Below, one piece after another: positions 23,736 through 41,336 of a stretch of DNA of 64,000 bases. The notes beneath the pieces are model-generated. The model did no database searches and had not been told where the DNA came from. It saw only the letters and a program-made list of their open reading frames with translations. The number at the start of each line of letters is the position of its first letter. The stretch's first letter is position 1. The stretch spans positions 428,132 through 492,131 of the forward strand of contig JBAZKF010000001.1 in the NCBI GenBank assembly GCA_041650895.1. Direction: 5' to 3'. This stretch comes from Patescibacteria group bacterium (GTDB lineage: Bacteria; Patescibacteriota; Patescibacteriia; 2-01-FULL-39-33). The translations under genes were made by a program, and so were the position numbers.

Positions 23736-24471
23736 AACTTAGGTTTAATTTTTAGCTTTAAAGCAGATAAACTCGCCCCTAGGCAAGCCCTCCCGCCGAT
23801 AGGCAGGTATTCATAAATTTCCATCAAAGCTAATAATTAAGCCCTAGAGTTAGAAAATGCCAGATTGGCATCTTCTAAAATGGAATTAGATGAGGCAAGA
23901 CGTTAGCCGTCTCGATATACTTTAAGTCATAAGTATATCACAAAAAAAATATATTGTCAACTAAACAAACATAAAAGTAGTAAATTTGGACAAAATATCT
24001 CTAAATCTTGACTTTGCAACTACCTATAATAACGCTTATTTTTGTTTAAATTTAAACAATTTAGCGGTACAGTACTAAAATAATATTAAAAATGTTTGAC
24101 AAATTACTATTATTTTGATAATGTTTTCTATTCCCCAGTTCAACTGAAATTACGACAATTCACCTAATTACCGCTTGCTAAATTAGCAAGTATCCGACTT
24201 TTTTTCTCAGTAATAAAAAGTAATCAACCACTTTGGCTGACTATGGCAAGAGTTAATTTTTATTACCGAGGCAAAAAGTCTCAACTTTCCGAAAATATTG
24301 CAAATTCAGAGAGGAAAGTTCATGAACCTTACAATTTGGTTTTGGAAGTATATAAAATATATAACTGAGAAGCTGACAACTCAAAGGAAGAATAGTTTAC
24401 CGCTGACAACTCAAGGAACAATTATCTCAGAAACCGTAACTGCTACTAACAACATAAGGAGAAAAAATGAA

Positions 24472-25281
24472 ATGAGCGAGGCCAGAACCTTTAAAATATT
24501 CCAAGGCTCCGTTATTGGTCGGGAGCATACCCGTCTCTGGAGAAACAATCAAGACGGGTTGCGGACCGGATCAACGAAAATTGCCGGCAAGCTTTATCAT
24601 TTCGGTATCGTTTGCGATGGTTGCAGCGGAGGAGAAAACAACGAAGTCGGAGCAAAATTAGTTTCGGCCTATCTCTGCAGCGAGATTCCAATGATGCTAA
24701 TGGCAGGTTCGTCCATCGGCGATATCCCTGATGCATTATTCAATCGTTGCGTCGGCTATCTGCGTTCCATCGCTTCATTGACAATTATTGGTGATCCTCG
24801 ACAATCAATCCAGTTTATTAAGGACCATCTGCTTTGTACGATTCTGGGATTCATTATGGATGATGAAATAGTGGTCATTTTCTCAGCCGGTGACGGCACC
24901 ATCATTGTTGATGATGCAATCACCCGCATCGATCAAGACAATCGTCCCTCCTATCCAGCCTACTCTTTGATTGATCGCCAATTCATAAACCTGCAAGGCG
25001 GCGAATTGCCGACATCATTTGAAACTACGTTTATTTATTTGGACGACATAAAAAAATTCGCTATTTGTTCGGATGGCGTCACCGATGCCGCCGTTCCGTA
25101 TCTGTGGGGGCACAACAACCCCTTGGGTTTGCAACGTAAATTGAAGAACATAGCACGCGGCAGTGAATCCTTTGGCGATGACTGTACGGTTATCGCCGTC
25201 GAACTTATCCCGAATGAACCGGTAACCGGCGTCATCGCCGAAACAATAGAGGCTGCTGAAGGAGTAGGAGAAATATCATGA
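24472..25281 (+). CDS. PP2C-family Ser/Thr protein phosphatase
   Basis: GIVCDGCSGGENNEVGAKLVS (motif 1/2 metal-binding Asp-Gly) and CSDGVTDA (PP2C SDG motif). RBS aagga 11 nt upstream of ATG 24472. The ORF opens at 24298. Confidence 0.7.
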   Translation: MSEARTFKIFQGSVIGREHTRLWRNNQDGLRTGSTKIAGKLYHFGIVCDGCSGGENNEVGAKLVSAYLCSEIPMMLMAGSSIGDIPDALFNRCVGYLRSIASLTIIGDPRQSIQFIKDHLLCTILGFIMDDEIVVIFSAGDGTIIVDDAITRIDQDNRPSYPAYSLIDRQFINLQGGELPTSFETTFIYLDDIKKFAICSDGVTDAAVPYLWGHNNPLGLQRKLKNIARGSESFGDDCTVIAVELIPNEPVTGVIAETIEAAEGVGEIS

Positions 25282-27218
25282 GATATTTATTAGGAAAAAA
25301 TAAAACACCAATTGATTTAGAGCAGGATGATGTCATAGGTTCCGGCGGAGAAGCGATTGTTTTCGCTCATCCGACGCAACCGGACAAGGCCTTCAAAGTC
25401 TATCATGATCCGACGCTTAGCCGTTCACATAAACTGGAATCTTTTTTTCAGCAAAATTTGCAACTTCCCGCTAATATAATCGTTCCGGAAGAACCGCTTT
25501 TTGCCGCTAACGGCCGAACAGTTGTCGGTTTCATGATGCGACGATTGCCGGGAAATTTCATTCCTTTGGCTCTACTGATGCGCGCCGATTTTTGCAATCA
25601 GAATGCTATCAGCACGAAAATCAAAATAAATATCTGCATCAGCCTGCTTAAGGGCTTGCTGGCCATACATCGGTATCCCGGAATCTGCGTCGGCGACCTT
25701 AACGACCAGAATGAAATCATTATTGATCCGAGAACCGGCGAGGTCTATTGGATTGATGTCGACTCCTGGCATTTGAGCGACAAGTTCCCTTGCGTTGTCG
25801 GAACGGAAGATTATCTTAGTCCCGACCTTTACGGAAAAGACTTATCACGCCAAGCTTATTTTAAACCGAAGCATGACTATTATTCTTTCTCGACCTTGCT
25901 ATTCAGAATCCTAATGATGACTCACCCCTTCGGTGGCGGTGTCCATAAACAATTCCTTTCCTTGTTTGATCGAGCTACGCACGGCCTGACCGTTTTGGAC
26001 CCGGCCGTTCGTTACCCCAAAAAAGCCAAACCCCGGGAAGTCCTGACTGACGAATTGTCCGAGATTATCCAAAGATATTTAAAACGGCAATGCGACGATC
26101 CCTTTCCACTGGCGGAATTGGAAAAATACGCCGGCCTATTGATTGAATGCTCTCATTGCCACCTTGACTACCCGGCTACCCGAGACAATTGTCCCGGTTG
26201 CGCGGCTAAGACGGTGGCTAAGGCAAAACTGACAGCCAAAATCTCCGGCTGTATCTGCGATATCATCCTGGAAACTCCGGGGCGGATTATCTGGCATCAG
26301 CTGTCGGGAAAAGACTTATGTGTTTTAACCGATGAAGACGACTTGACGGTTTTTTATCGCAAGTCGCCTAACGGTCAATTGGAACGCAAAGAGCTATTCA
26401 AAACTCTGACCGGCGCCCGTTACGCATTTTTTGATAATGTACTAACGGTCTGTGTTGATCCGTCTGCCGAAAATCCGGAACTGCTGCTGATTGACATCAG
26501 CGGCAATCGACCGCAAGGCATCAGCAAGTCATCCACTAATTGTTATAGCGGCGGTACGGCCGTTTTTGCCAGTTCCGGACGGCGCTTATACCGCTTGTCC
26601 GGCAACAGCTTAATGTCCGGAGAACTCTTCGGGAAAAGTCTATCCGACCGTCAAGTAATGGAAACCATTGGCAGACAAACAAAAATCTTTGTGGCTGATA
26701 ACCACGAACTGACTGACAATCATGAGGTTGTTCTGGTTGTCCAACGAATCTTGGGCGACTTGCATTGGTTTATGGCTGTTGGCGACACTGAAGGTAAAAA
26801 CTTTAAACGTTTACAGCTTTCTATCGCCGAGCTTGATGATCAAGAATCAATTATTGACGCTTCAGTCCGCTTTGGCGGCAAGACAATACTAATTCTACGC
26901 CATACCCGCGAACACGGCGTCAATTTCGTTAGACTTGACCAAATAAATATTTTTGACGGCAAGGTTTCGCAATCCAAAAAGATCAAAGTTTCGGAAGCAA
27001 AACAATTTGAGGAGATCCATGGCAAAGGGTTCACTGATGAAGCTATACTGCATGCGACTGATGACGGCGTTAAACTGCAAAATTTAGCCGATAACAATTT
27101 GCTCACCCTACCGGGAACTGATAATTACATCTCCGGCGGAGAACGGTTGTTACGTTACGGCAACGGCATTATCGCCATTTCTGGCGACAAAATAATTTCC
27201 TTGAGACCGGAAAAGTGA
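25278..27218 (+). CDS. Hanks-type Ser/Thr protein kinase with a central Cys4 zinc ribbon and a roughly 300-aa C-terminal domain of unknown function
   Basis: Gly-rich loop IGSGGEAIVF, the Lys in AFKVY, a catalytic-loop-like GDLNDQN, WIDVDSW (DFG equivalent), GTEDYLSPD (APE-like) and CSHCH...CPGC. The start overlaps the PP2C stop (ATGA). Confidence 0.7.
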   Translation: MRYLLGKNKTPIDLEQDDVIGSGGEAIVFAHPTQPDKAFKVYHDPTLSRSHKLESFFQQNLQLPANIIVPEEPLFAANGRTVVGFMMRRLPGNFIPLALLMRADFCNQNAISTKIKINICISLLKGLLAIHRYPGICVGDLNDQNEIIIDPRTGEVYWIDVDSWHLSDKFPCVVGTEDYLSPDLYGKDLSRQAYFKPKHDYYSFSTLLFRILMMTHPFGGGVHKQFLSLFDRATHGLTVLDPAVRYPKKAKPREVLTDELSEIIQRYLKRQCDDPFPLAELEKYAGLLIECSHCHLDYPATRDNCPGCAAKTVAKAKLTAKISGCICDIILETPGRIIWHQLSGKDLCVLTDEDDLTVFYRKSPNGQLERKELFKTLTGARYAFFDNVLTVCVDPSAENPELLLIDISGNRPQGISKSSTNCYSGGTAVFASSGRRLYRLSGNSLMSGELFGKSLSDRQVMETIGRQTKIFVADNHELTDNHEVVLVVQRILGDLHWFMAVGDTEGKNFKRLQLSIAELDDQESIIDASVRFGGKTILILRHTREHGVNFVRLDQINIFDGKVSQSKKIKVSEAKQFEEIHGKGFTDEAILHATDDGVKLQNLADNNLLTLPGTDNYISGGERLLRYGNGIIAISGDKIISLRPEK

Positions 27219-27289: not shown

Positions 27290-28975
27290 ATGAATCAGGT
27301 AGAACAGTATGCGGAAGCTTTTCGACGGGGTTATTTGGGCGACGTTGAAGCCAATGGCGTACTGGGCCGTATTATTCGCGGCAAAAGCCCCAAGGACTTT
27401 GAAACGCTCACCGACGATCCGACCCGAAAGTTGATTCTATTGACCGACCCGCTGGCCCTCAAAGCCATGGTCGGCGTGCCGGCCTTCGACCTTTTGCTGC
27501 GTGTCGGTTGGGACTTCCCTTACGCCGTAGGAAAAATCAAAGACGGTTTCCATGTCAAGCTGGTCGTTTTCCACGAAGGTGGCAATGCCCTGCTCTGCAC
27601 CTGGGACAATATGATCACCTTGGTCGGCAAGGCCTATCCGGAAATCGCTCAAAAAATCCGGCGCTGGCTGCCCGAACTCAAGAAACTCGATTTCCGCAAA
27701 TTCAATGAGATTGAACAGGCCTATGGCTGCGACATGTCGCAAGTCGATCATGATGGATCAACCAACCAGCAATATATGACCGTTGAACGCTACAAAACGG
27801 CGGACGATACGCTGGTCAATGCCCGAGCATTCCTGTACTTCACCGTTCACCTGCGCGAATTATTCGCCGGCGACGGCAGTACGCGCGATTCGCTCGGCAA
27901 TATCGGCGTCAAAGAATACATGGCGCTAAACTGTCCGATCAGCGAATTACAAGACGCGGTCCTGATTGACCTGAAACCGGAACTGCCGCCCGCGGCGCGC
28001 CTCGTTTTTAAGAAACGTTCGCCCGGTCCGCGTACCGGCTTCCCCAGTTACTATAATCCCGATGACGTCGGCAAGCGCTACGAGCCGCGCCTGGATTGGG
28101 TGACGGAAGACGCCAAAATGGCCAACCTGAAACCGGCCGCCCAAGCCACGGTCAAACGGCTCTTAGTCGGCATTGATTTACAAGATGATTTTATTATGCC
28201 GGAAATCAAAAATCCGGACGGTACAGCCATTCAAAAGGCGGGATCACTGCTGGTTAGCGGCGCCGTGGATGACACTCGGCGTTTAGTTGAATTAATCTAC
28301 AACGAACCGGAATATTTCACCGGCATGCTGTTCTCCCAGGATCAACATATTCCTTTCCAAATCTTTTTCCCGACTTGGTGGCGCAAACGCGACCGATCCA
28401 TGGTTGATCCCTTTACCTTCCTCACTCAGGAGGCGGTACAAAAAGGCGACTTCTATCCGGCTGTTGAGAAACAATGGTCGCTGGATTACATTAAGCAACT
28501 TAAAGAGATGATGATCTGGCCGTTCCATTGCATGATCGGCACTCCCGGATCTTCTTTGATGCCGGCGCTTGCCGAAGCCGTTCATTGGCTGTCAATCGCC
28601 AGAGGTATTCAACCCGAATACCTCTTCAAGGGTACCGTACCGAAAACCGAACATTATGGACCGTTTTGTCCGTGCGTGGAAGTGCCAACTCACCCGCAAG
28701 GCACACTCCACACCGTTCTGCTTGATCGAGTTGCCGCTCATGACGGCGGGACTGTTTTCTGCGGCGAAGCGGAAGATTACTGCGTCAAGACTGGTATGCA
28801 ACAAGTCGTGGAATATTTCGGAAAAAAACACCAATCGGCGCTTAGCCAGATCAGATTCCTGCGTGATTGCACCAGTATGGTTTTCCCGCAAAATCGACTG
28901 GAAGCGGACAACTTCCTACAAAATATGGAAGACAGGGGAGTGATCATAACCACCTGCGACAAGTTGACTGCTTAA
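27290..28975 (+). CDS. Fusion protein: uncharacterised N-terminal domain (about 280 aa) plus a C-terminal isochorismatase/nicotinamidase-like cysteine hydrolase
   Basis: The C-terminal half has LLVGIDLQDDF (Asp of the triad) and CGEAEDYCV (catalytic Cys motif of isochorismatase-like hydrolases). RBS aaggaga. Confidence 0.55.
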   Translation: MNQVEQYAEAFRRGYLGDVEANGVLGRIIRGKSPKDFETLTDDPTRKLILLTDPLALKAMVGVPAFDLLLRVGWDFPYAVGKIKDGFHVKLVVFHEGGNALLCTWDNMITLVGKAYPEIAQKIRRWLPELKKLDFRKFNEIEQAYGCDMSQVDHDGSTNQQYMTVERYKTADDTLVNARAFLYFTVHLRELFAGDGSTRDSLGNIGVKEYMALNCPISELQDAVLIDLKPELPPAARLVFKKRSPGPRTGFPSYYNPDDVGKRYEPRLDWVTEDAKMANLKPAAQATVKRLLVGIDLQDDFIMPEIKNPDGTAIQKAGSLLVSGAVDDTRRLVELIYNEPEYFTGMLFSQDQHIPFQIFFPTWWRKRDRSMVDPFTFLTQEAVQKGDFYPAVEKQWSLDYIKQLKEMMIWPFHCMIGTPGSSLMPALAEAVHWLSIARGIQPEYLFKGTVPKTEHYGPFCPCVEVPTHPQGTLHTVLLDRVAAHDGGTVFCGEAEDYCVKTGMQQVVEYFGKKHQSALSQIRFLRDCTSMVFPQNRLEADNFLQNMEDRGVIITTCDKLTA

Positions 28976-29068: not shown

Positions 29069-29905
29069 ATGAGTACAGCTTCAAAAGCCAGTATTACTGG
29101 TTTGTTCCAGTGCGACGACGCGAAAGTCCTCGGCATTACAAGTGATGCTTCGGACGTCATAATCGCCAACTTGAATGCCAACAACCTACCCATGTGCGTT
29201 GGTGCGCCCATTGACCAGCTTGCCTCCGATGACGTAATAGTCATTGAATTTATTCTTGACGCCTCCCCCTCAATGGAAGAAGTTGCCGACCTGCTGATTG
29301 AAACCTTCAACGAGGTAATGATCGAGGGATTGCGCGGTTCTTCCAAAAAAACCGCCAATGCCATCGTCATCGGCGGCATTGCCTTCAGTCGGGACATCAG
29401 GAGTTTGTTCGGCGGCGGCTTCGTACGTTTGGAGGAATTGCCCAAGCTGACCAAACGCGAATACAACCCCAGCAACGGTTCTTCCACCAATCTGTACCAA
29501 GCCCTGTTGGACGGCATCACTGCGGCTAGCGCCTACGGTCTTCAAGTCTTACAAGAAAACAGCACACCGCCCAAAATTATCGTCATCTGTTTGACGGACG
29601 GGGGGGACAACTGCCACCAAGCAGACCCGGCCGATGTGAAAACCTTGACTGAAACTATGAGCCGCGAACTCTGCAAATTCCCTCTGGCCGTTTTTGAAAC
29701 TTACGAACGGGTTGATTGCCAGCAGATTGCTGGAGCCACCGGTTTTGAAGCTCATAACTTCAAAAAACAGCCGGGCGAAACCAAAGAAGATCTTCAGCGG
29801 CGTTTCCGCCACATGATGGGCACGATGTCCAGCTCAATTATTTCGGCCAGCCAAGCAAAAATCGGCACGGATTCGAAATCGGCTTTCTGGACGCCGGGAC
29901 AATAA
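29069..29905 (+). CDS. von Willebrand factor A (vWA) domain protein, TerY-like
   Basis: MIDAS motif IEFILDASPSM (DxSxS) with a downstream LTDGGDN. RBS aaaaggaga. Confidence 0.7.
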   Translation: MSTASKASITGLFQCDDAKVLGITSDASDVIIANLNANNLPMCVGAPIDQLASDDVIVIEFILDASPSMEEVADLLIETFNEVMIEGLRGSSKKTANAIVIGGIAFSRDIRSLFGGGFVRLEELPKLTKREYNPSNGSSTNLYQALLDGITAASAYGLQVLQENSTPPKIIVICLTDGGDNCHQADPADVKTLTETMSRELCKFPLAVFETYERVDCQQIAGATGFEAHNFKKQPGETKEDLQRRFRHMMGTMSSSIISASQAKIGTDSKSAFWTPGQ

Positions 29906-30061: not shown

Positions 30062-31066
30062 TTGACCAACAACCAAGAAGGGAAACAAAACAGCATGTAC
30101 GCGTTGGACAGAGAAAGTTGCGGTGCGGTAGTCAATAGGGCCGCCAAGTGGGGTCTTTCCTATTGCCAAAGAAACGGCATTCATTACCTGATTACTCCGA
30201 GTTCCGGCGGCCGTGACAGCGCCATCACCCTGGGTATCAACCAGCGGGTCTGCCAATTGGCGACTCGAGAAAAATACCCATTGACTTCAGTCGGCGTGAC
30301 ACTGCCCTGCCATACTCCGGAAAAAATTACCCGGCTGGGGCAATTGGCCATCAGAACCTTCGGAGCCGAGGAGTTAGGACCGCTTGATTTAAGTGTGGAC
30401 TTTGACGAGCTGATGGAATTGCTATTTGGAGAAAACTTTTATGGCGATAAATTAGACCAGGAAATCAAGGCGATTATGTGCAAGAAAAATGACCAAGCCG
30501 GGCTGGCTCATTGGAAAGGCAACCTCCAAGTCGCCCGGGGCAATATCAAAGCCCGCCTGCGTATGATCGCCGCTTACCACATTGCCAAAATGTTCGGCAG
30601 CGGAGTAGTGGTCGGCACCGACAACCTATCGGAATTCTGGATGGGCTTCTGGACGCTTCACGGCGACGTCGGCGACATCGGTTATATCCAGAATCTGCTT
30701 AAGGGACTGGAACTGGAATCAATCGCCAGATACCTCGGCGTACCCAAAAAAATCATGGCCGAAGAACCGTCGGACGGCTTGGGTGTTAAAAAGGGCGGTG
30801 ATGCCGCCCAACTCGGAGCGGACTACCCGACTTTGGACGTCATGATGCTTGATTTGATTCAACAGGGCTTTAACTTGGACGGACACAAAAAACAATTGGA
30901 TAACTTGCCTCAACCTCGGATTCAGTCAGCCGACCCCGAACTGATTCTCTCCTTAGCAGCTAGGGCAGTGGGAAATTCGTTCAAGCGACGCGGACCAACC
31001 TACCCCTCGCGCAAACAACTGGGCCTGCTACCCCTTGAGGTCATCAAGATCTGCCCCTTCCCTTGA
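30062..31066 (+). CDS. nadE: NAD+ synthetase-like PP-loop ATP pyrophosphatase (NadE family)
   Basis: PP-loop SSGGRDS plus NIKARLRMIAAYHIA...GTDNLSEFWMGFWTLHGDVGDIGYIQNL, closely parallel to NadE signature regions. Confidence 0.7.
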   Translation: MTNNQEGKQNSMYALDRESCGAVVNRAAKWGLSYCQRNGIHYLITPSSGGRDSAITLGINQRVCQLATREKYPLTSVGVTLPCHTPEKITRLGQLAIRTFGAEELGPLDLSVDFDELMELLFGENFYGDKLDQEIKAIMCKKNDQAGLAHWKGNLQVARGNIKARLRMIAAYHIAKMFGSGVVVGTDNLSEFWMGFWTLHGDVGDIGYIQNLLKGLELESIARYLGVPKKIMAEEPSDGLGVKKGGDAAQLGADYPTLDVMMLDLIQQGFNLDGHKKQLDNLPQPRIQSADPELILSLAARAVGNSFKRRGPTYPSRKQLGLLPLEVIKICPFP

Positions 31067-31339
31067 GATCATCAAGCTCGGTATAGCACTTTAATCAATA
31101 CAGCACCTTAACCAAACCAACCCGCAATTTTTGCGGGTTTTATAATTATGAAAAATAAACAATGGCAGTATCTCATCTCGCTGGTTATTACTTATTTATC
31201 CAATTTTAAACAAAAAAACTTTAATCAAGAGGTGATTAAATATTGCCAGTTGACTTTTTTTCATATCTATGATACAATTTAATGTTCAACATGAACAACA
31301 AGGAAAAATACCTAACTGAACCTTACAAGGAGACGCGCA

Positions 31340-31930
31340 ATGGGTTATAGCTTTTATGCTTATTCTAAAGCAAGATTCCTGGAAACTGACGGCCCGGGAA
31401 AACACCACCCCAATGAAGTATTGCATATTCTGCTTGAATATGAAGAAGATAGATTCCTGCTTGACGGCCAACTCGAGGGCGTCTATCAAGTCACGGGGGA
31501 AGAGAAAGATTTTAACATGTGTTTCGGCAATTACAATACCTGGCGAACCATCATGTTCAAAATCTTGGATAAAATATCATTGGCCAATTCCCAAACCGCC
31601 TGGGATGATGCCGGAGAGGACGGGATATTCCATGCCATGATTCACCTTTGCACCTACGGAGTAATTATTGGTCCAGTCACTTCTAAAAAATTGGCTGGGG
31701 ATTTCAAAAACTACCGATCAACCATCGAAGAATTGGTTAATAATGATCAGGAAGTCCGAGAGGTTATTGAGGGTGAGATCGCTGAAGAACGCGAGGAGTA
31801 CCCTCAACAGCCAGAGATGGCAATGGACCAAGCTGTCGAAGAAAAAAGACAGTATTTTATGGAATATTATGACTATTTCTGCGAACTATTCACGCTATCC
31901 AGCAATGATGGATTTATGCGCATGTCATGA
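31340..31930 (+). CDS. Hypothetical acidic protein (196 aa), last gene of the island. Followed by a hairpin terminator at 31938-31966.
   Basis: RBS caaggaga. No motif recognised. Confidence 0.4.
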   Translation: MGYSFYAYSKARFLETDGPGKHHPNEVLHILLEYEEDRFLLDGQLEGVYQVTGEEKDFNMCFGNYNTWRTIMFKILDKISLANSQTAWDDAGEDGIFHAMIHLCTYGVIIGPVTSKKLAGDFKNYRSTIEELVNNDQEVREVIEGEIAEEREEYPQQPEMAMDQAVEEKRQYFMEYYDYFCELFTLSSNDGFMRMS

Positions 31931-32109
31931 CTCTTCTCTGAGCACAATGCCGTCACCCGCGAGGTGACGGCTTTTAAATTACAAAAAATACCCCTTAACC
32001 GGGGTATTTCATAATCGCAACCGTGATTTGTTATACAAATTCTATTAGATTATAAAAAGGCTACTGACCAGAAGGGTTGAAAGAATCAAGCCAAATTTTA
32101 GTTGAAAAC

Positions 32110-33069
32110 TCAACGTATCGCCCCGGCATCCGCCTGTGTTTCTCTTTTCATTTCTTCTATCTGCCTCTTAATATCCTCACTGGTTGGCGGTTGGTTTCCT
32201 ATTGACTGATTTAGCTCACCATCAACAGGCCCATTAGCACCTTCAGAACGCCCGGAAGCAGAAGCGTCATCTAAGGTAGCACTCGAATCAGAAGAATTGA
32301 ATGATTCTTTATCGGGGTTTTGTAACGCCATTTCGGCTTTATTAATTTCTAACAAATCCATAGCGTTTTTATAATCAATCATACTGCAACTGAAAGAAAA
32401 ATCACCGTCATAGATAGCTCCCATCGCGGTTTCATTACATTTCCTATCAATAATTATATGATCTCCGTCCGCTAACAAATCATGGCCCGGGGAATTGTCC
32501 AATTGATAGACTCCGGAACAGCCATGATGAGGCAAACCCGGACTCGCCTCTTCATCAATAATAACGCTGACCCACTGCTTATTTTCCGTATCAGGGTCAG
32601 TGACAATATACTTTCCGTTATAATCAATTCTTAGCGGTAATTCATTGCGGCTATAAACCTCCGTTAAGGATCCGTATTCTTTAACCGGAACGTCAATTTT
32701 TATGCCGCCCAATGATTGGCCCAAAATGCCATCATATTTATATTTCAATTGCCGAGACATGATAAATAACTTGTTTGACTCTTTATTATAAAGTATTAAT
32801 TCCTTGGAAGAATAATCAACTATGCCGTTAGCGGCAAAAGCCTTATCCGAATGAACGCTGTTTATCTTCATCTCTCCCAAGCAAAAAGAATACTTGGATG
32901 TATCTTTTAATTCGTCATACCACAGTTGCTCGATTTTCCGTTGATCTTCTTGGGCGCTATCGGCCGATTCGTTTAACCCGAAGGGATTTGATTTGGCAAC
33001 GTAGATTCCGCCAATAATAATCGCGGCCGAAGCAGTAGCTAATCCTCCGATGAGTAATTCTTTTTTCAT
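32110..33069 (-). CDS. Hypothetical secreted or membrane-anchored protein
   Basis: N-terminal hydrophobic segment MKKELLIGGLATASAAIIIGGIYVA. The ORF opens at 33099. Confidence 0.45.
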   Translation of the reverse strand: MKKELLIGGLATASAAIIIGGIYVAKSNPFGLNESADSAQEDQRKIEQLWYDELKDTSKYSFCLGEMKINSVHSDKAFAANGIVDYSSKELILYNKESNKLFIMSRQLKYKYDGILGQSLGGIKIDVPVKEYGSLTEVYSRNELPLRIDYNGKYIVTDPDTENKQWVSVIIDEEASPGLPHHGCSGVYQLDNSPGHDLLADGDHIIIDRKCNETAMGAIYDGDFSFSCSMIDYKNAMDLLEINKAEMALQNPDKESFNSSDSSATLDDASASGRSEGANGPVDGELNQSIGNQPPTSEDIKRQIEEMKRETQADAGAIR

Positions 33070-33079
33070 AGAATTGAAG

Positions 33080-33583
33080 TTATAAACCGCAGACCTCACT
33101 CATAGACGGACAATCATTGGTGGCAATCATGCAGTCTATTTTTTTCTTATCCCATTTAGCGCATTCGCCCAAGCAGTAATTATAGCCGTCATTGAATACT
33201 GTTTCGCTGACATTAGGTACCAAAGTCAAACAATTCATAACATATTTATTGCACGCCGCTTCACAATCATTTTTAGCTACCGGCAAATTAGGTTCATTGA
33301 TCTCCGGGATCAATTCAGTCATCCTATCTTTGGGTTTGGCTAGCATCCCCGAACAATCGGAGGCGGTCTTAATTTTGTCTTTAGTCGCCTGATCCCAATT
33401 GACGCATTGGCTCCGGCATTCCTCCCCTGATGCAAACTCAGCGCATTTGCTGTTGGCTTGAGCGCAGAGACTGGCACAATCATTGCTGACCTCCGAGCCA
33501 GTTATTTTGTTTGAATTATCAGTACAACCAGAAACTACAAAAACGGCTGATAATAGAACACAAAGATACAGATATTTAGTCAT
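33080..33583 (-). CDS. Cys-rich putative lipoprotein
   Basis: Signal peptide plus a lipobox-like VVSGC. The mature part has 18 Cys. Confidence 0.5.
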   Translation of the reverse strand: MTKYLYLCVLLSAVFVVSGCTDNSNKITGSEVSNDCASLCAQANSKCAEFASGEECRSQCVNWDQATKDKIKTASDCSGMLAKPKDRMTELIPEINEPNLPVAKNDCEAACNKYVMNCLTLVPNVSETVFNDGYNYCLGECAKWDKKKIDCMIATNDCPSMSEVCGL

Positions 33584-33826: not shown

Positions 33827-34892
33827 AGATAATTTTGTATCTTACACTCCGCCCAGCGCCTAATCGTTCCACTTTTTTCATCTCCAGTAGTTTATTTAGA
33901 GCTTGAACGACTGTCGGTGCTGGTATTTTTAACTTCTCTCGCAACTCTTTCGGCGTTACCATTTTATGATCTTTTAAATAACTCCAGATTTCCGACTGCC
34001 TAACCGATAATTGATTCTCAATATTTTCCTTGTCTAATAATCCTAAAGCTAATTTAGTTTGCTTTAAAATAATTTCTAGAAAATATACCAGCCAAGGCGT
34101 GATATCCTCTATTGATTTGCCACGTTTTCTTTGTGACTTATTTAGTGCCAAATAATAATTCTCTTTATTATCCTCGATTAGTTTTTCATGCGATACATAG
34201 GGCAGATACTCGTAGCCAGCCTTTAAAAGCAGTAGATTAGTCAAAACCCGCGAAGTCCTGCCATTACCGTCCTGAAAAGGGTGAATTGAGAGGAATTCAA
34301 AAACAAAATTAGCGATAATTAATAACGAGTTGATTTGTTTGTTTTCTAATTCCTCTTTAGTCCAATCGACTAATTCTCCCATTTCTTTAACAACTAAATG
34401 CGGCTTAGTTGTTTCAAACAATACTCCAACTAATTTACCGCTAGCATTATGTGCTTCGACGCGATTATCGCCGAATTTATATTGACCCTTATGCCGAACA
34501 TCTTTTTCTGAATATTTTAAAAGTTCGGCATAAAAATGCTTAATTAAATTTTCTGATAAGTGAAGATTTTTATAAGATTCAAAAATATTAGCTAATAATT
34601 CAGCATAACCGGCGACTTCTTGTTCATCTCTGGTTACCAGTTTAGTGATTTTTAAGCCTTTCAGTAATTTTTCTACCTGCTCATCTGTTAATTTAGCTCC
34701 CTCAATACGCGTGGAAGCTCCAGAGGAGGTTACAATAACTGATTTCTTTAATCGACTTAAAGATTGGGGCGATAAGTTAGCGCCCATTTTCCATTGACCC
34801 TTCAATTCGTCAATCTGGCTGATTAAACCGTAAATCTTATTGACCATTGTCGGCTCCAATTCTAATCTCTTACTTAGTTTATTTTTATTCAT
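33825..34892 (-). CDS. Fic-family (filamentation induced by cAMP / AMPylase-type) protein, class II, with an N-terminal inhibitory helix
   Basis: Active-site loop HPFQDGNGRTSR and the N-terminal inhibitory motif SGASTRIEGA ((S/T)xxxE(G/N)). Confidence 0.8.
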   Translation of the reverse strand: MNKNKLSKRLELEPTMVNKIYGLISQIDELKGQWKMGANLSPQSLSRLKKSVIVTSSGASTRIEGAKLTDEQVEKLLKGLKITKLVTRDEQEVAGYAELLANIFESYKNLHLSENLIKHFYAELLKYSEKDVRHKGQYKFGDNRVEAHNASGKLVGVLFETTKPHLVVKEMGELVDWTKEELENKQINSLLIIANFVFEFLSIHPFQDGNGRTSRVLTNLLLLKAGYEYLPYVSHEKLIEDNKENYYLALNKSQRKRGKSIEDITPWLVYFLEIILKQTKLALGLLDKENIENQLSVRQSEIWSYLKDHKMVTPKELREKLKIPAPTVVQALNKLLEMKKVERLGAGRSVRYKII

Positions 34893-34963
34893 ATATTTTG
34901 ACTATATTGCTTATATATTCAATTATATACGATTATATTTGATTTATCAATAGATAACAAAAA

Positions 34964-35084
34964 AGATGCAATAAATGCATCTTTTTTAAATCTGGGTCAC
35001 GACCGTGATTTGCTCATAGAAATCCTATCGAATCCGGAGGAGATTGGCTTAATTAAGCGGAAGTTGGAGAGAATTAAAGAATAA
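34964..35084 (+). repeat. Fic-associated module copy R2: hairpin plus T-run and the peptide-coding-like repeat. No palindrome.
   Basis: About 85% nt identity to R1 over about 90 bp. Confidence 0.6.
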
Positions 35085-35144
35085 GTACCGATTTAAAGTC
35101 TCAACAAAACGGGTAAAGCATGAAATTTATTCTCGAGATATTTA

Positions 35145-36257
35145 TTATTTTAATAATTTACTAGCTAAACAGGTTGCGATCGGCATAGACAGCATTAATC
35201 CAATACTGCCGACTAATGTCCTAACGATTTCCGTAGCTATCGCATCGTTATTGATGACTTGAAAAAAATCAACAGGATCGGTAGGACTAAGATAAAATAA
35301 CATTAAAAGAGGCAGGGAAACGCCGACATAAGTCAAAAACAACGTATTAACAATAGCCCCCAAGTGAGTTTGCCCGACCTTGAGACCCATCTTAAAAACT
35401 TGATTTGATGGCAAGGATGAGTTTGCCAATTTAATCTGCGCCACTGCTTCAATCTGTCCCAAAATAATATCATCCAATACGCCAACAGTTCCTATCAAAA
35501 TTCCAGCTAATAATAATCCTTGAAAATTTATACTTCCAATACTGGTTCCAATTAAAAGTGTTGCTTCTTCTGTAGAGAAGCCAGATAATCTAGTCAACCA
35601 AGTAAATAAATATGCTAATAATAATGTTAAAATTAATGAAATAAAAACTGTTAATACCGCTAAATGTGCTTTTCTATTAAAGCCATCCGTCAAATAAATA
35701 ATTATAACCATAATTAATAAAGATCCTAGAACAGCGACAATTAGAGGATTAGCGTCAGCAAGTAATTGAGGAATAATCAGAAATATAATGACTACGAAAC
35801 TTAAAATTAAGCTCAACAATGATTTTATTCCCTTGCGCCCGCTAACTAGAATGGTTAATAAAACAAATATAACTGCTAACAGATAAAGCCAGCCAGTACG
35901 GATATAGTCAGTGACAAAATACTGCTCATCGCCATTTTCTCTGCTTATAACATCAACATAAACTTTATCCCCAGCGTTATAAGCGCCGACCGAAACAACA
36001 TCAAAATCTCCAATTCCAAAAGAAGTCACTTCCTTATTCTTTAGAGGTCCGCTTAACGCTTTTAATAATAAATTTTGTTGGATTGCTACTGATCCATCTT
36101 CACGATTAAACTTTTTTTCTTCCAACACCTTAATGACTTTTGCCTTAAAAGTGTTATTTTGGTTTTTGGTTTGAGCATTAACAAAAAATGGAGTGAACAC
36201 TAAAAAAGCTAAAATAAATACTATTGATAAATTTACATAGCTATTGTTCATAAACAA
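35145..36257 (-). CDS. Polytopic membrane protein (possibly YibE/F-like)
   Basis: Signal/TM segment, a periplasmic-like domain, then 6-7 TM helices. Confidence 0.4.
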   Translation of the reverse strand: MFMNNSYVNLSIVFILAFLVFTPFFVNAQTKNQNNTFKAKVIKVLEEKKFNREDGSVAIQQNLLLKALSGPLKNKEVTSFGIGDFDVVSVGAYNAGDKVYVDVISRENGDEQYFVTDYIRTGWLYLLAVIFVLLTILVSGRKGIKSLLSLILSFVVIIFLIIPQLLADANPLIVAVLGSLLIMVIIIYLTDGFNRKAHLAVLTVFISLILTLLLAYLFTWLTRLSGFSTEEATLLIGTSIGSINFQGLLLAGILIGTVGVLDDIILGQIEAVAQIKLANSSLPSNQVFKMGLKVGQTHLGAIVNTLFLTYVGVSLPLLMLFYLSPTDPVDFFQVINNDAIATEIVRTLVGSIGLMLSMPIATCLASKLLK

Positions 36258-36260
36258 CTA

Positions 36261-37085
36261 TTAAATTAGATTCATTAAATAAATTACCAAGAACATAAAA
36301 CCTAAACCCAAAATAGTCCCCAAAATACTTAAATGCCCATGTCCCAATCTTTTGGCGGCAGGAATTAATTCATCAATGGCAACATAGAACATAATACCAG
36401 CAACAGCGGCTAATAAAGAACCCATCAATAAGGGATTCGGGAAATTAATAAATAGAAGAAGGGCTAATATTGCGCCGATTGGCTCTGCAATGCCAGCAAT
36501 AAATGAATAAAAAATACCGCGCCAACGACTCCCAGTCGAACAATAAATAGGTAATGCAACACAAAATCCCTCCGGTATATTATGTATAGCAATTGCTAAA
36601 GCCATTATTAACCCTAAATATGGATTATACACAGCTGAAGTAAAGGTTATAACACCCTCTGGCAAATTATGCAATCCAATTGCAATTGCAACAAATACAC
36701 CAGTAGCCATCAATTTTTTATTTCCGATTTTATCACATTTTATTGAATTATTTGATTTTTTTTCGATCAAACAAATATTATCATCATGTTTGCTACCACG
36801 ATCTAAAAAATAATGTGTCAGCATATCAAGAAAATAAGCAATCAGCGCGCCCAAAGCAAAATAAAAAATTACAATCTGTTTATCATGTAAAATATTTAAT
36901 GATTCTGGTAATAATTCAAAAAAAGATAAGTAAACCATAATACCAGCCGAAAAACCCAACCCCAAGGCGACGCGTTTTAATGGTAAACCCTTAAAGGCAA
37001 AAACAAAAAAGGCACCCAATAAGGACGCCATTCCCGCAAAAAAGGAAACGGTTAGAGCAAATTGAATATTAGACAAATTTAACAT
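36261..37085 (-). CDS. ZIP-family divalent metal (zinc) transporter
   Basis: Paired HNLPEGV / HNIPEGF signature motifs of ZupT-like ZIP transporters. Confidence 0.75.
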   Translation of the reverse strand: MLNLSNIQFALTVSFFAGMASLLGAFFVFAFKGLPLKRVALGLGFSAGIMVYLSFFELLPESLNILHDKQIVIFYFALGALIAYFLDMLTHYFLDRGSKHDDNICLIEKKSNNSIKCDKIGNKKLMATGVFVAIAIGLHNLPEGVITFTSAVYNPYLGLIMALAIAIHNIPEGFCVALPIYCSTGSRWRGIFYSFIAGIAEPIGAILALLLFINFPNPLLMGSLLAAVAGIMFYVAIDELIPAAKRLGHGHLSILGTILGLGFMFLVIYLMNLI

Positions 37086-37146
37086 AAATAATTTTGTTTA
37101 TTACGTTTTTTTTCCACTGCACCGACATTAATACTAATTAATCAAT

Positions 37147-37419
37147 CTATATTTCACTTTTAAACAAATTTTTAATACTACAAACAATCCACTGCCAATG
37201 TAAAATTAAGTGGATAACAACTAAAACAATTAAAATAATTCCCGTCCAATCATGAATTGATGAATATACTGACTTAGTTATCCCGAAAAATTCTTGATAA
37301 CGGCCCTGTCTAACGCCCTCCGGTAAAAAGAAAAATATGATTAATCCCGTTTTAGCAACCACTAAAAAGCTAATAAAAGCTAATAAATCGACTAAAAAAT
37401 TAAGTTTGTTTTTTTTCAT
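37147..37419 (-). CDS. Small membrane protein (90 aa)
   Basis: Two or three hydrophobic helices. No motif recognised. Confidence 0.4.
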   Translation of the reverse strand: MKKNKLNFLVDLLAFISFLVVAKTGLIIFFFLPEGVRQGRYQEFFGITKSVYSSIHDWTGIILIVLVVIHLILHWQWIVCSIKNLFKSEI

Positions 37420-37640
37420 ATAATTTATTCTAGATTAATAATTATTTATTGATATTTATACATAAATTATAGCATAAATACTAAATATAATTCTAATTTA
37501 ATATGTAATATAACTTTATTGCCCCTCTATCAATTAACTAATAAAACTTGACAAATTTTAGTTTTGGGTATATACTCATAATAGGTAACCTTAAGAAAGG
37601 TCGGATTATCGAGTATAATTAACTTAAATTACACAAAAAT

Positions 37641-37838
37641 ATGCCAAATATGAATGGAACTGGCCCACGTGGAGAAGGCCCTAAAACTGGCCGAGGATTA
37701 GGTAAATGCTCTGGCACTAATGGTGCCCAATCTACAGCCAACGACAACGAAAACCGCGGCTTAGGACGTGGCAGAAATAACTGCCCCAGCAGAGGCTTAG
37801 GCTTAGGACGTGGCTGCCGCAATAGAGTTTCTAATTAA
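37641..37838 (+). CDS. Small Gly/Arg-rich protein with scattered Cys (65 aa). Low confidence.
   Basis: The ORF lies immediately upstream of the DUF134 gene. The composition is repetitive (RGLG repeats). Confidence 0.25.
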   Translation: MPNMNGTGPRGEGPKTGRGLGKCSGTNGAQSTANDNENRGLGRGRNNCPSRGLGLGRGCRNRVSN

Positions 37839-37922
37839 TCCATCAATTCTATATGGAAGCGGATTTGAAGGAGCTAAAACTCTTGGCTCCTTAAACCCGT
37901 TTAACAAATCACCAATAAACTT

Positions 37923-38210
37923 ATGTGCCCCAGACCACACAACTGTCGAAAAGTATCCTTCAACCCCAACATTACTTACTTTAAACCTCAAGGAATGCCC
38001 ATGAGGCGACTTGAAGTTGTAGAACTTACAACCGAAGAACTTGAAGCCTATCGCTTAAGACACATCAAAGATCTTGATCAGCAAGAAGCGGCGGAGAAAA
38101 TGAACACTTCTGCCAGCACCTACCAAAGAATTTATTACTCCGCTGCAGCCAAAATCGCTGATGCTTTAATTAACGGCAAGGCGATTAAAATTATTAATAA
38201 TTGCCAATAA
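37923..38210 (+). CDS. DUF134/UPF0251-family predicted DNA-binding protein
   Basis: MCPRPHNCRKVSFNPNITYFKPQGMPMRRLEVVELTTEELEAYRLRHIKDLDQQEAAEKMNTSASTYQRI parallels the UPF0251 consensus (MPRPRKCRRV...YFKP). Confidence 0.65.
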   Translation: MCPRPHNCRKVSFNPNITYFKPQGMPMRRLEVVELTTEELEAYRLRHIKDLDQQEAAEKMNTSASTYQRIYYSAAAKIADALINGKAIKIINNCQ

Positions 38211-38211
38211 T

Positions 38212-39165
38212 ATGAAAAAAAATAAAAGAATCATCTTTTCAATTCTAGCAATTATCGTGATCTTTATAGTCGCTATATTTACCACGATTAATCTTAACCA
38301 AAGATTACAAAAAGACAATAAAAAACCCATTAATGCCATGCTAATGCTGATTGAATTTGAAAAAATTAATGGCATTCTTCGGTGGGAAAAAGAGTTGGAT
38401 AATCGCAAATTGACGGCTCTTGTTAAAGTTCAAGATAATGTTCTTAAAGAATATCCGGAAGTATTCAAGCGCCTAGCTAATAAAGGATATGAAATCGCTG
38501 GCGGTTACGATGAGGCTTCTTTTTGGGACATGCCATACGATCAACAATATGAACACATCAAGGAATCAAAAGAGTTGGTAGAGAAAATTACCGGTAAAAC
38601 TATGCGAGTTTTCGGCAGTCGTTATTTCGCTTATGATGAGAATACCTTAAAGGCTGCTAACGCCTTAGGTATTGAATATATTTTAGGACGAGGAGTGAAT
38701 GATGTTGAAGCGGTTATCTATCAGCCGATTGAGTATAAAACTAAAATAATTTCAGTCACCAACGTTGATGTCGGAGAAATGGGACGCGGATCATTGTGTG
38801 ATTATAGTTTATGGGCAAGGGGCTCTAATGCTAAAGACTTTGGTACCATATTAACTGAAAGCATCGCTAAAAATCCAATGAATATGATTCTTGTTTCTCA
38901 TGCTTATCTTGGCGGCACTAGGCTGGAATGGTGGCAGGAATATGAGAAAGCGCTTAAATCTGACCGAATTAAATGGGCCAGCTTTAATAATTGGCTAGAA
39001 AATCAAAAAGTAGTCACAATGGCCAACGCTAAAATTCCTTTAAATAAAGAGGTAAAATACGTATCGCCGAAACCAGCTAAAGAAATACAAGATTATGAAC
39101 CGATTCCTGGGGTTGAAACTATTCGCAATACAACTACTTCTGAAGATTTAATGATTTGCCAATAA
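38212..39165 (+). CDS. Hypothetical membrane-anchored protein
   Basis: N-terminal TM segment. No motif recognised. Confidence 0.4.
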   Translation: MKKNKRIIFSILAIIVIFIVAIFTTINLNQRLQKDNKKPINAMLMLIEFEKINGILRWEKELDNRKLTALVKVQDNVLKEYPEVFKRLANKGYEIAGGYDEASFWDMPYDQQYEHIKESKELVEKITGKTMRVFGSRYFAYDENTLKAANALGIEYILGRGVNDVEAVIYQPIEYKTKIISVTNVDVGEMGRGSLCDYSLWARGSNAKDFGTILTESIAKNPMNMILVSHAYLGGTRLEWWQEYEKALKSDRIKWASFNNWLENQKVVTMANAKIPLNKEVKYVSPKPAKEIQDYEPIPGVETIRNTTTSEDLMICQ

Positions 39166-39183
39166 GATATAAATTTATAAAAA

Positions 39184-39373
39184 CATCCTAAGTAACTAGG
39201 ATGTTTTTAATTCTAACAAATTCCCATCTTGGGTCACGACTATGATTTGCTCATACAAATACTTAACGATCCGAAAGAGACAGGGCTGATTAAGCAAAAA
39301 CTCAGGAATATTAAGGATTTGCACAAAATTCCTTAATATGGTATAGTGTCATTAGTTAAACCATACCATATTA
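39184..39373 (+). repeat. Fic-associated module copy R3: hairpin plus T-run, the peptide-coding-like repeat (39217-39336), and the palindrome AATATGGTATAG-N15-CATACCATATT just upstream of the fic2 ATG
   Basis: Shared architecture with R1. Confidence 0.6.
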
Positions 39374-39379
39374 AGCTAT

Positions 39380-40321: not shown

Positions 40322-40344
40322 TTAATCGGCTTAATATTTTCTAT

Positions 40345-41019: not shown

Positions 41020-41132
41020 TTAGTTGTTCAATTCCCTTTCTCCTTAACAAAAAAATACTCAATTTATGAGTATTTTTTTGTAGTTGTATTCATCTTTACT
41101 ATCAAATTTGATAGTTATGAATAGTACCGAAA

Positions 41133-41312: not shown

Positions 41313-41336
41313 CAAAAAAATAATTCAACTTTGCAG

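Follow-up and report, generated by a model that had tools for sequence, protein, structure and literature searches.

A single reading frame in a Patescibacteria contig raises the question of why a cysteine hydrolase should be joined to a large N-terminal domain of no recognizable kind, and what that domain does. The window analysed here is the whole 64-kb stretch of DNA surrounding the frame, and all positions are counted from its first letter. The initial annotation described the frame as a fusion of a roughly 280-residue uncharacterised domain to an isochorismatase-like hydrolase. We show that the protein belongs to a conserved gene cassette, and we propose a role for its N-terminal domain in the turnover of NAD.

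Domain organization of the fusion protein

The reading frame and its parts are listed below.

27290–28975, + strand: fusion ORF, ATG start, 561 aa
27290–28003, + strand: N-domain (aa 1–238), delimited by the AlphaFold model and conservation; belongs to a large unnamed family
28004–28033, + strand: inter-domain linker (aa 239–248), the sole segment with pLDDT below 50 in the full-length model
28034–28975, + strand: long nicotinamidase-like module (C-module, aa 249–561) and stop codon, assigned by motifs, profile and Foldseek

A protein sequence search found an identical protein on record in a Patescibacteria MAG and about 47 full-length relatives with 31–75% identity. The frame is thus not a product of chance, and its description as one real ORF was correct. 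The motifs VGIDLQDDF (aa 293–301) and CGEAEDYCV (aa 491–499), as well as the two N-terminal strings quoted in the initial annotation (aa 1–18 and 87–108), are all present in the translation. The N-domain is fused to the nicotinamidase-like module in 31 non-redundant loci, corresponding to 39 ORFs before de-duplication; gene calls at the high-GC relative loci were HMM-based.

The hydrolase module begins at about aa 249, because standalone homologues of 308 aa align from aa 249–255 through to the end. The N-terminal domain is uncharacterised, as had been stated, but it is shorter than the 280 residues proposed. The pTM of the full-length AlphaFold model was 0.62, indicating that the N-domain and the C-module are placed independently, and the N-domain modelled separately gave a pLDDT of 94 and a pTM of 0.86. 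As modelled, the N-domain is an autonomous domain tethered to the C-module by a disordered or flexible linker.

The C-terminal module resembles nicotinamidases

Motifs and fold matches in the PDB place the C-terminal half among the cysteine hydrolases of the isochorismatase-like superfamily, in agreement with the first assignment. The catalytic triad is intact in the alignment with PncA: D296 (nt 28175–28177), K447 (28628–28630), and C498 (28781–28783) correspond to D8, K96, and C138, and are invariant in 42 fusion proteins. The metal ligands D351, H353, and H413 are likewise invariant in the 42 proteins and align with D49, H51, and H71 of M. tuberculosis PncA, the surrounding motifs SQDQH and WPFHC being matched with ATKDFH and WPPHC. 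An Asp-x-His motif followed by a downstream His separates the metal site of nicotinamidases from other isochorismatase-like hydrolases. In a search of PDB sequences with the family profile, Pnc1 (8.5e-10) and M. tuberculosis PncA (1.1e-08) were found with their motifs aligned, and the best 10 matches of the full-length model in a Foldseek search of the PDB were all nicotinamidases (3v8e, E 6.5e-12 and TMt 0.79; 2wt9, TMt 0.82). The metal site and these best matches narrow the earlier "isochorismatase/nicotinamidase-like" to its second term; the module is not YecD- or isochorismatase-like.

The window protein gave no match to Pfam PF00857 at E ≤ 0.1, which marks the C-module as divergent within the family. 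With NCBIfam PRK11609, the fusion protein scored 15 bits (E 0.013), where the cut-off is 174. We conclude from motifs and modelled structure that the C-module is a predicted long nicotinamidase, divergent in sequence, with an intact active site and fold, and its preferred substrate could differ from free nicotinamide. One standalone C-module homologue of 309 aa adjoins a PncB-like gene.

The fusion gene is embedded in a conserved cassette

In the window, the following features accompany the fusion gene.

24298–25281, + strand: PP2C-type phosphatase, with which the cassette begins; exceeds the gathering score of Pfam PP2C_2 (E 2.1e-07)
25278–27218, + strand: Ser/Thr-kinase-like protein, 646 aa; Pfam Pkinase, E 5e-07, and motifs
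29069–29905, + strand: vWA protein, 278 aa; Pfam VWA, E 0.01 (weak), and MIDAS alignment
30062–31066, + strand: NAD+ synthetase NadE, last gene of the cassette in the window; Pfam NAD_synthase, E 8.2e-27; TIGR00552 nadE, E 1.7e-27
31119–31139, + strand: terminator-like hairpin closing the cassette; 9-bp stem and T-rich tail, consensus match only

The true start of the PP2C gene is likely the ATG at 24472, which is preceded by the ribosome-binding site AAGGAG and gives a protein of 269 aa. The Pkinase score of the kinase-like protein (29.8 bits) is just under the gathering score of 31.7. Its kinase domain (aa ~12–280) carries the motifs GSGGEA, AFKVY, GDLNDQN, and DVD, and is followed by a Zn ribbon, CSHC-x10-CPGC (aa 291–308, nt 26148–26201), and by about 330 C-terminal residues with no family match in Pfam. 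In the vWA protein, the MIDAS site (D64-x-S-x-S68, T140, and D177) is intact, with invariant columns in an alignment of 13 sequences, and the conserved C-terminal tail is rich in serine (S254, S256, S261, and Q262). NadE occupies the same position as in the 75%-identical relative (L001), and the terminator-like hairpin starts 53 nt past its stop codon. No riboswitch was found upstream of the cassette; Rfam detected just tRNAs in the window.

The partnership is widely retained. In all 26 loci with enough flanking sequence, the gene immediately downstream of the fusion encodes a vWA protein, and among the 17 fusion loci with both flanks available, an orthologue of the kinase is present in 16 and PP2C in 15. 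The cassette occurs in two gene orders with varied flanks. The three partners recall the TerY-P triad, which was described as a TerY-like vWA protein, a PP2C phosphatase, and a Ser/Thr kinase bearing a Zn ribbon at its C-terminus (Anantharaman, Iyer, and Aravind, 2012; summary in PMC11090510). Literature searches on nicotinamidases with PP2C and vWA, on NrtR in Patescibacteria, and on NAD salvage in CPR bacteria returned nothing relevant.

NAD genes and NrtR-type operators surround the cassette in relatives

An NrtR gene lies within 7 kb of the cassette in 13 of 17 loci, and the NAD-related neighbours among the relatives include NADK, Nudix, PncB, Prs, NadE, PnuC-NadR, ARH, and NADAR. The palindrome TAGTGTAT-N3-ATACACTA occurs 50 times among the relatives against 5.3 expected, and the sites stand upstream of nrtR, the cassette, nadK, and pnuC. 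Judged by its sequence, it fits the published NrtR operator, which is given in PMC2330246 as a 21-bp palindrome with a GT-N7-AC core. The window itself contains no NrtR-type palindrome (0 matches even with 3 mismatches allowed), and no NrtR, PncB, NADK, or Nudix gene was found within its 64 kb. Other candidates for the release of nicotinamide were seen in the same operons, namely Nuc_deoxyri_tr2 and, by eye, SLOG-like proteins.

The N-domain defines a broad family

At 50% identity, the N-domain family falls into at least 837 clusters. Its members are mostly standalone proteins of about 230 aa and are distributed over CPR bacteria, Asgard archaea, cyanobacteria, and Chloroflexi, with some in phages. 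About half of the members having an N-terminal extension start with a signal-peptide-like sequence and keep every key residue. The view of the N-terminal part as an appendage of a hydrolase scaffold does not suit a family that is mostly standalone and in part putatively secreted, nor is this half a common, annotated extension of nicotinamidases. R27, R46, G73, W105, R179, G194, G196, T198, E209, and N214 are near-invariant across the family, T198 being kept in 97% of the fusions and 88% of the standalone forms. The fusion set has 25 invariant columns, many of them polar; the polar residues at conserved positions are R27, R30, D36, D43, R46, K90, R167, R179, E190, D195, T198, E209, and N214. 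The mean identity of the N-domain is 0.49 versus 0.35 for the C-module, and the N-domain is the more conserved part in 89% of the pairs. The family has neither a family model nor a structural relative, yet it is better conserved than the enzyme to which it is fused.

No Foldseek match to the N-domain was obtained at E ≤ 0.001 in the PDB or BFVD, and NCBIfam, PHROGs, PADLOC, and PDB sequences gave no match, nor Pfam a convincing one. The single match of the family profile in the PDB sequences, to a lysozyme repeat, was judged spurious. A lead towards ADP-ribosyltransferases came from Foldseek matches to pertussis toxin, which are at noise level. DUF3793 matched 6 of 108 standalone members weakly and below threshold (best E 0.0025), and did not match the N-domain of the window.

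Besides the nicotinamidase-like module, the N-domain is fused to members of the IMPase (E 1.5e-54) and Metallophos (E 4e-08) families. Fusion to an HD domain is weakly indicated (E 0.03–0.12), with the motif FFHDIGKGG as the only other visible sign, and CinA/PncC was rejected as a partner (P0102, a 453-aa protein in L027), its Pfam match (E 0.017) being below threshold and unconfirmed by a search of PDB sequences. A separate isochorismatase-family gene is located next to or near the N-domain gene in five loci (L013, L030, L058, L022, and L008). Many other standalone neighbourhoods exhibit no obvious link to NAD, containing FabH, an AI-2E transporter, Peptidase_C26/Usp, or RNA ligase.

Possible roles of the N-domain

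We infer the catalytic activities, the substrate of the N-domain, and the direction of the phosphorylation from the arrangement described above. The N-domain probably works as an enzyme one step upstream of the nicotinamidase, with a nicotinamide (ribo)nucleotide or nucleoside as its substrate. Its assignment as a nicotinamide-releasing enzyme follows the logic of fusion and neighbourhood, since no relative of known function was found. The phosphoesterase fusion partners fit a position of the N-domain between a dephosphorylation and a deamidation step. In addition, the pattern of conservation, with a dozen invariant polar residues and a degree exceeding that of the amidase, looks more like that of an enzyme than that of a sensor. 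The sensor or specificity role suggested by the initial annotation is not supported by this pattern.

We tentatively favour the reading in which the fusion is a two-enzyme NAD-recycling protein, with the N-domain releasing nicotinamide, and forms the core of a conserved four-gene, phospho-regulated cassette for NAD salvage. As our best guess, the N-domain would cleave the N-glycosidic bond of NR, NMN, or NAD, and the fusion would pass the liberated nicotinamide straight to the attached amidase. The metal-dependent C-module would convert it into nicotinate and ammonia, and nicotinate would enter the Preiss-Handler route through PncB and NadE encoded alongside. The kinase, PP2C, and MIDAS vWA proteins may act as a TerY-P-like phospho-switch that gates or assembles the activity of the fusion. 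NrtR would govern the cassette in most lineages, and the cassette under its control would be switched on when ADP-ribose signals the consumption of NAD. Degradation of NAD or NMN in the cytoplasm, inside a regulon that builds NAD, needs tight control against a futile cycle; avoidance of such a cycle as the explanation for the triad is an after-the-fact rationalisation.

A rather unlikely alternative is that the C-module is the sole enzyme and the N-domain a non-catalytic module that switches it, either by binding a metabolite such as NAD, ADP-ribose, or NMN, or by docking or accepting phosphate for the kinase, PP2C, and vWA proteins. The obligatory association of the fusion with these three partners would be readily explained in this manner, as would the flexible linker and the lack of a recognizable catalytic fold in the N-domain. 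The near-invariant T198 could be a phosphorylation site, and a SpoIIE/PP2C phosphatase adjoins standalone N-domain genes in three Obscuribacter loci (L036, L080, and L081). However, sensor domains seldom exceed their enzyme in conservation as the N-domain does here, and the family consists mostly of proteins without an output domain. The members with signal peptides, which cytoplasmic kinases would not reach, retain T/S198 along with the other key residues, and a kinase or vWA gene is absent from most standalone loci.

The strongest form of the nicotinamide-releasing reading is that the N-domain founds a new enzyme family, maybe also a new fold, which splits nicotinamide off NR, NMN, or NAD and which in CPR bacteria and their phages is hard-wired to a nicotinamidase under TerY-P-type gating; we regard this full version as unlikely. 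To our knowledge, gene assignments for bacterial activities of the NMN nucleosidase type have been poor for a long time.

Distinctly less probable is a conflict system, that is, a TerY-P-type defence whose fusion effector destroys NAD and removes nicotinamide, leaving phages unable to rebuild NAD, or the mirror image, a counter-defence of phage or host by which NAD is rebuilt once an NAD-depleting immune system has acted. According to PMC11090510, TerY-P-like modules act as defence systems in their own right and also as accessories to restriction systems; the kinase C-terminus of those modules is described there as an OB fold, not a Zn ribbon. The kinase in the window weakly matches PD-T4-6 of PADLOC (E 1.5e-06) and PglW, and the G+C content of the cassette (0.489 versus 0.427 in the flanks), together with the different flanks of the window and its 75%-identical relative, would suit such a system. 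On the other hand, PADLOC gave no match for the fusion, vWA, or PP2C proteins, and no defence-island neighbours were seen in the window. The NrtR-controlled operons with NADK, PncB, Prs, and NadE are a signature of NAD homeostasis, and the cassette is kept in reduced genomes of about 1 Mb. Two phage-like contigs, L005 and L040 (the latter from IMG/VR), carry genes for the N-domain and the nicotinamidase together with PncB and NadE; these sets recall the phage pathways of NAD reconstitution, but an effector that destroys NAD would make no sense in a phage also carrying PncB and NadE. In L040, the N-domain and the nicotinamidase are separate genes of one cluster. In GenBank phages, only C-module-like genes were found (three huge-phage records and the short fecal contig MT837596), with no N-domain.

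Finally, we rejected as highly improbable a non-orthologous replacement of NadD (NaMN adenylyltransferase) by the N-domain, which would complete a pathway of PncA, PncB, N-domain, and NadE and would account for the one Preiss-Handler step unseen in the operons, as no canonical NadD is encoded there or in the phage sets of N-domain, C-domain, PncB, and NadE: the N-domain lacks an (H/T)xGH motif, no nucleotidyltransferase (Rossmann-like HUP) fold appeared among its Foldseek matches, the signal-peptide members keep the whole conserved site where ATP is unavailable outside the cell, canonical adenylyltransferase-family genes lie next to or near N-domain genes (NadR in L017 and L031, CTP_transf_like in L098, and one in L061), and nadD may lie elsewhere in the genomes bearing the cassette.

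The partner genes and the NrtR-controlled NAD operon give the fusion its meaning. Reduced, host-dependent bacteria must salvage pyridines, and the cassette may be a key control point of this process. Fusion or adjacency to nicotinamidases and phosphoesterases, together with the NrtR operators, offers a testable entry to the role of the N-domain in NAD turnover. TerY-P-like triads have so far been discussed mainly in the contexts of stress and defence. The cassette suggests a metabolic client for such a kinase/phosphatase/vWA triad, and if the N-domain is a new enzyme gated by it, this would be the first metabolic output assigned to a triad of this type.

Comparison with known systems

The C-module shares with the classical nicotinamidases its fold (TM 0.72–0.82 to Pnc1 and to the A. 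baumannii and M. tuberculosis enzymes), the Asp-Lys-Cys triad and Asp/His/His metal site in identical order, and a genomic context that includes PncB and NadE. It differs in length (about 310 aa, in contrast to 180–235 aa), in a conserved 40-aa N-terminal extension, in an insert of about 25–40 residues between the DxH and WPxH motifs, and in carrying a 238-aa domain of unknown function and being paired with vWA, kinase, and PP2C genes. For the N-domain, no Pfam family other than DUF3793 recurs among its members; the matches are sub-threshold, and the family, itself without a known function, adds no mechanism.

The operons of the relatives resemble the NrtR operons of Rodionov et al. (2008; PMC2330246) in three respects: NrtR (Nudix plus wHTH) is encoded just upstream, a 19–21-bp palindrome with the GT-N7-AC core stands ahead of the cassette as well as of nrtR, nadK, and pnuC, and the genes co-regulated with the cassette are classical NAD genes. 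In contrast, kinase, PP2C, vWA, and N-domain genes are not described among the regulon members in the available portion of that paper, and NrtR and its box are missing from the copy in the window, either through loss or because they were never there.

As in the TerY-P triad, the cassette unites vWA, PP2C, and kinase genes in one operon, the MIDAS site is intact, and the kinase domain is followed by a CxxC...CxxC Zn ribbon. Unlike in the triad, a fourth gene, encoding the fusion of the N-domain and the nicotinamidase-like module, is inserted beside the vWA gene, the kinase is extended by a further C-terminal region, and the vWA and PP2C proteins match no PADLOC defence model. The setting is also one of NAD metabolism and not of tellurite resistance or restriction.

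Three NAD reconstitution pathways are known from phages: NARP1 (Adps and Namat), NARP2 (Nampt and Nmnat), and NARP3 (PnuC and NadR). NARP3 was considered as the identity of the cassette and dismissed as a different system. The phage contigs contain no NARP protein, and their route would be the deamidated Preiss-Handler route via nicotinate. As with NARP1–3, the gene set with PncB and NadE could rebuild NAD from nicotinamide, and the versions carried by phages may point to another way in which viruses rebuild NAD, one that involves deamidation.

The C-terminal half is a divergent nicotinamidase-type hydrolase

The open reading frame runs exactly as the initial annotation had placed it, from an ATG at 27290 to the end of a stop codon at 28975 on the + strand (561 aa), and the protein contains both N-terminal strings cited there, together with the Asp signature VGIDLQDDF (residues 293–301) and the Cys signature CGEAEDYCV (residues 491–499). 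An identical sequence is on record as a hypothetical protein in a Patescibacteria-group MAG (957,791-bp contig). About 47 full-length relatives (514–620 aa, 31–75% identity) were found, mostly in CPR bacteria, and ~25 standalone proteins (~308 aa) align with residues ~250–561 only. In one case, the gene of a 309-aa standalone homolog adjoins a PncB-like gene.

Submitted as a single sequence, the C-terminal module (C-module, residues 249–561) gave no match in Pfam and weak scores for NCBIfam PncA (E 0.013) and Pnc1 in the PDB (E 0.8). Its profile A3 matched, in the PDB, yeast Pnc1 (8.5e-10), M. tuberculosis PncA (1.1e-08), and P. horikoshii PncA (6e-07). In the profile alignment with solved nicotinamidases, LLVGIDLQDDF pairs with the catalytic-Asp motif LIIVDVQNDF, SQDQH with the metal Asp/His motif ATKDFH, WPFHC with the metal His motif WPPHC, and AEDYCV with the nucleophile-Cys motif ATDHCV; D296, D351, H353, H413, K447, and C498 are invariant across 42 fusion proteins. 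In addition, the ten best PDB fold matches of the full-length AlphaFold model (pLDDT 92.2), compared using Foldseek, are nicotinamidases (E down to 6.5e-12, TM ≤0.82). By alignment and model, the C-module belongs to the nicotinamidase-type hydrolases as a divergent, "long" form whose active site is complete. The isochorismatase-like cysteine hydrolase first proposed thus stands as regards the triad, which is intact relative to PncA, whereas a YecD or isochorismatase type was rejected in view of the nicotinamidase motifs, the metal site, and the ten best folds. This half adds a new, divergent member to a known family and, taken alone, is probably a nicotinamidase active in NAD salvage.

The N-terminal domain

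The N-terminal half is indeed a separate domain, although shorter than the ~280 aa initially assigned: in the full-length model, it ends at residue 238 and is followed by the sole low-confidence stretch (residues 239–248), and the pTM of 0.62 indicates that the two domains are placed independently. Modelled alone (pLDDT 94, pTM 0.86), this N-domain is mixed α/β, with ~7 strands and ~10 helices. An exhaustive profile search gathered 837 representative clusters, 633 of them at E≤1e-10. The family has no member named by any source and none with a precomputed Pfam domain; the region is therefore not a common, annotated extension of nicotinamidases, the outcome that the initial annotation had set against its claim of novelty. 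DUF3793 was the sole recurrent family in 108 standalone members (six weak matches, best E 0.0025).

Among the best 150 of the 837, about 110 are standalone proteins of 205–300 aa, about 15 are nicotinamidase fusions, and a tandem duplication is found among the minor architectures. Others join the N-domain to an inositol-monophosphatase-family domain (E 1.5e-54) or to Metallophos in secreted giants (E 4e-08); HD and CinA, as fusion partners, were both weak matches. P0094, P0112, P0119, and P0126 carry two copies in tandem, and P0094, from a Logan assembly, has a eukaryote-like look, with an MGxxxS start and low-complexity linkers. Signal-peptide-like starts occur in about half of the members with an N-terminal extension and in the Metallophos giants, and the members with such starts retain all key residues. 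Because of these starts, part of the family appears to act outside the cytoplasm. Standalone examples include P0114, P0136, P0140, P0162, and P0176; the Metallophos proteins P0169 and P0171 (880–1280 aa) also begin in this way. The giants have, by eye, a putative Rossmann-like GGxxG...GGxG (SLOG/LOG-like) region.

The initial annotation had supposed that such a domain may be a sensor part, and a non-catalytic sensor or docking domain is one, rather unlikely, reading. The N-domain behaves more like an enzyme, since many polar residues are invariant, most members are standalone, some are secreted, and it is better conserved than its partner (mean identity within fusions, 0.49 versus 0.35 for the amidase). 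R27, R46, G73, W105, R179, G194, G196, T198, E209, and N214 are near-invariant family-wide. We consider it somewhat probable that the N-domain has an enzymatic activity of one kind or another.

A cassette associated with NAD genes

Ninety-two loci (73 non-redundant) were gathered from genomes, metagenomes, and IMG/VR, and their genes were called and clustered; the locus counts are lower bounds because each scan retrieved loci with two short peptide patterns. A vWA gene lies directly 3′ of the fusion in all 26 loci with enough downstream sequence, and the 17 loci with both flanks have a kinase gene (575–655 aa) in 16 cases and a PP2C gene in 15, in the order PP2C-kinase-fusion-vWA or fusion-vWA-PP2C-kinase. 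The kinase displays kinase motifs and a CxxC...CxxC Zn ribbon. In the vWA protein, the MIDAS site is invariant, and the C-terminal Ser-rich tail (residues 254–262; S254, S256, S261, Q262) is invariant or nearly so across partners, making it a candidate phospho-acceptor for the cassette kinase. By record title, L013, L014, L019, L028, and L030 extend the cassette beyond the CPR phyla, to MAGs assigned to the predatory bacterium Micavibrio and to "uncultured Gammaproteobacteria"; taxa are named here as in the MAG records, and if these names are right, the cassette follows host-dependent lifestyles, not a single phylum.

In 13 of 17 loci, an NrtR gene lies no more than 7 kb away. Recurrent neighbors are NAD kinase, Nudix, PncB, PRPP-synthetase-like, NadE, PnuC-NadR, ADP-ribosylglycohydrolase, and NADAR. 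A de novo palindrome, TAGTGTAT-N3-ATACACTA, was found at 50 sites in 750 kb (5.3 expected), nearly always in intergenic regions: it precedes nrtR by 20–50 bp and the first gene of the cassette by 140–650 bp, and it also precedes nadK, pnuC, and an isochorismatase gene (loci L003, L006, L008, L013–L015, L017–L021, L024, L028, L030, L031, L045, L047, L052, L053, L056, and L058).

The window holds a minimal version of the cassette (PP2C, kinase, fusion, vWA, and NadE).

Features of the window cassette and its surroundings
24298/24472–31066: five-gene cassette
29069–29905: vWA gene, tail residues 254–262 conserved
31119–31139: terminator-like hairpin closing the cassette
31250–31278: promoter-like site of the 196-aa acidic ORF
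31340–31930, + strand: 196-aa acidic ORF, no family match
31949–31971: strong terminator-like hairpin of this ORF
32110–33583, − strand: two adjacent ORFs, 329 and 167 aa
41134–41409: three tRNA genes (His, Arg, Arg), inside a low-G+C stretch

Its G+C content is 0.489 (0.51–0.52 in the fusion, vWA, and NadE genes) versus 0.427 for the rest of the window. The neighboring genes are unrelated, encoding a CrtC-like lipocalin, a cyclopropane-fatty-acid synthase, and a DEAD helicase at one end and Fic, ZIP, and YibE/F proteins at the other. In L001, a relative with 75% identity, these five genes have RecA and EF-P as neighbors; the different flanks, together with the G+C content, suggest that the cassette moves as a unit. 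No NrtR gene, NrtR box, PncB, NADK, or Nudix was found in the 64-kb window. The acidic ORF is not conserved beside the cassette in relatives. The 329- and 167-aa ORFs had no match in Pfam; the latter is Cys-rich with a lipoprotein-like start. Positions 34000–44000, which hold the ZIP and YibE/F transporter genes, are low in G+C (0.33–0.38 versus ~0.43–0.47 elsewhere) and may be a separate island.

Split, standalone, and phage-borne versions

The N-domain and isochorismatase-family genes are separate but adjacent in L013, L030, and L058, and are divergent neighbors in L022 (Asgard). In L036, L080, and L081 (Obscuribacter-type), a standalone N-domain gene lies between an AI-2E-family transporter and a 408-aa SpoIIE/PP2C phosphatase, which is a second, independent link of the domain to a PP2C-type phosphatase. 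In L034 and L075, the standalone N-domain gene is accompanied by genes for a T4-Rnl1-like RNA ligase and an endonuclease/exonuclease/phosphatase-family protein, and in L034 also by one for a NADAR protein; this neighborhood is RNA-repair-like or ADP-ribose-related.

A defence or counter-defence role of the cassette seems improbable to us. Two phage-like contigs carry these genes with PncB and NadE. One (L005) has the order fusion-vWA-PP2C-kinase-PncB-NadE; the jumbo-phage-like other (L040, IMGVR_UViG_3300033143_006101, 252,876 bp) clusters PP2C, a standalone N-domain (224 aa), NadE, PncB, kinase, and a standalone C-module (340 aa) at 6334–14997, with no vWA gene detected. The huge phages LR745208.1, LR756511.1, and LR756500.1 (GenBank, 462–595 kb) encode C-module-like nicotinamidases (27–28% identity) without the N-domain.

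Proposed function and comparison with known systems

We regard the whole as a kind of NAD-salvage nicotinamidase module and tentatively propose the following scheme. The C-module would most likely deamidate nicotinamide for the Preiss-Handler route. Rather than replacing NadD, a role that we consider extremely improbable, the N-domain would act between dephosphorylation and deamidation, given its pairing with a nicotinamide amidase on the one hand and with phosphoesterases of three kinds on the other; its substrate may be a nicotinamide riboside or nucleotide, from which, on the simplest assumption, it would release nicotinamide. In yeast, Urh1/Pnp1 carry out this release and Pnc1 acts next; by clearing nicotinamide, Pnc1 relieves NAD-consuming enzymes of product inhibition. 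The kinase, PP2C, and vWA proteins would, as a triad, gate this activity or assemble it, and would in this way prevent a futile cycle within an NAD-building regulon.

Our literature searches turned up no earlier account of the N-domain family, of its fusion, or of the cassette of four genes that combines a TerY-P-like triad with NrtR control. The kinase, PP2C, and vWA genes match the composition of the TerY-P triad (PMC11090510). According to PMC2330246, the NrtR operator is a palindrome of 21 bp built around a GT-N7-AC core and is released by ADP-ribose; our palindrome fits this core and is therefore a candidate CPR NrtR box.
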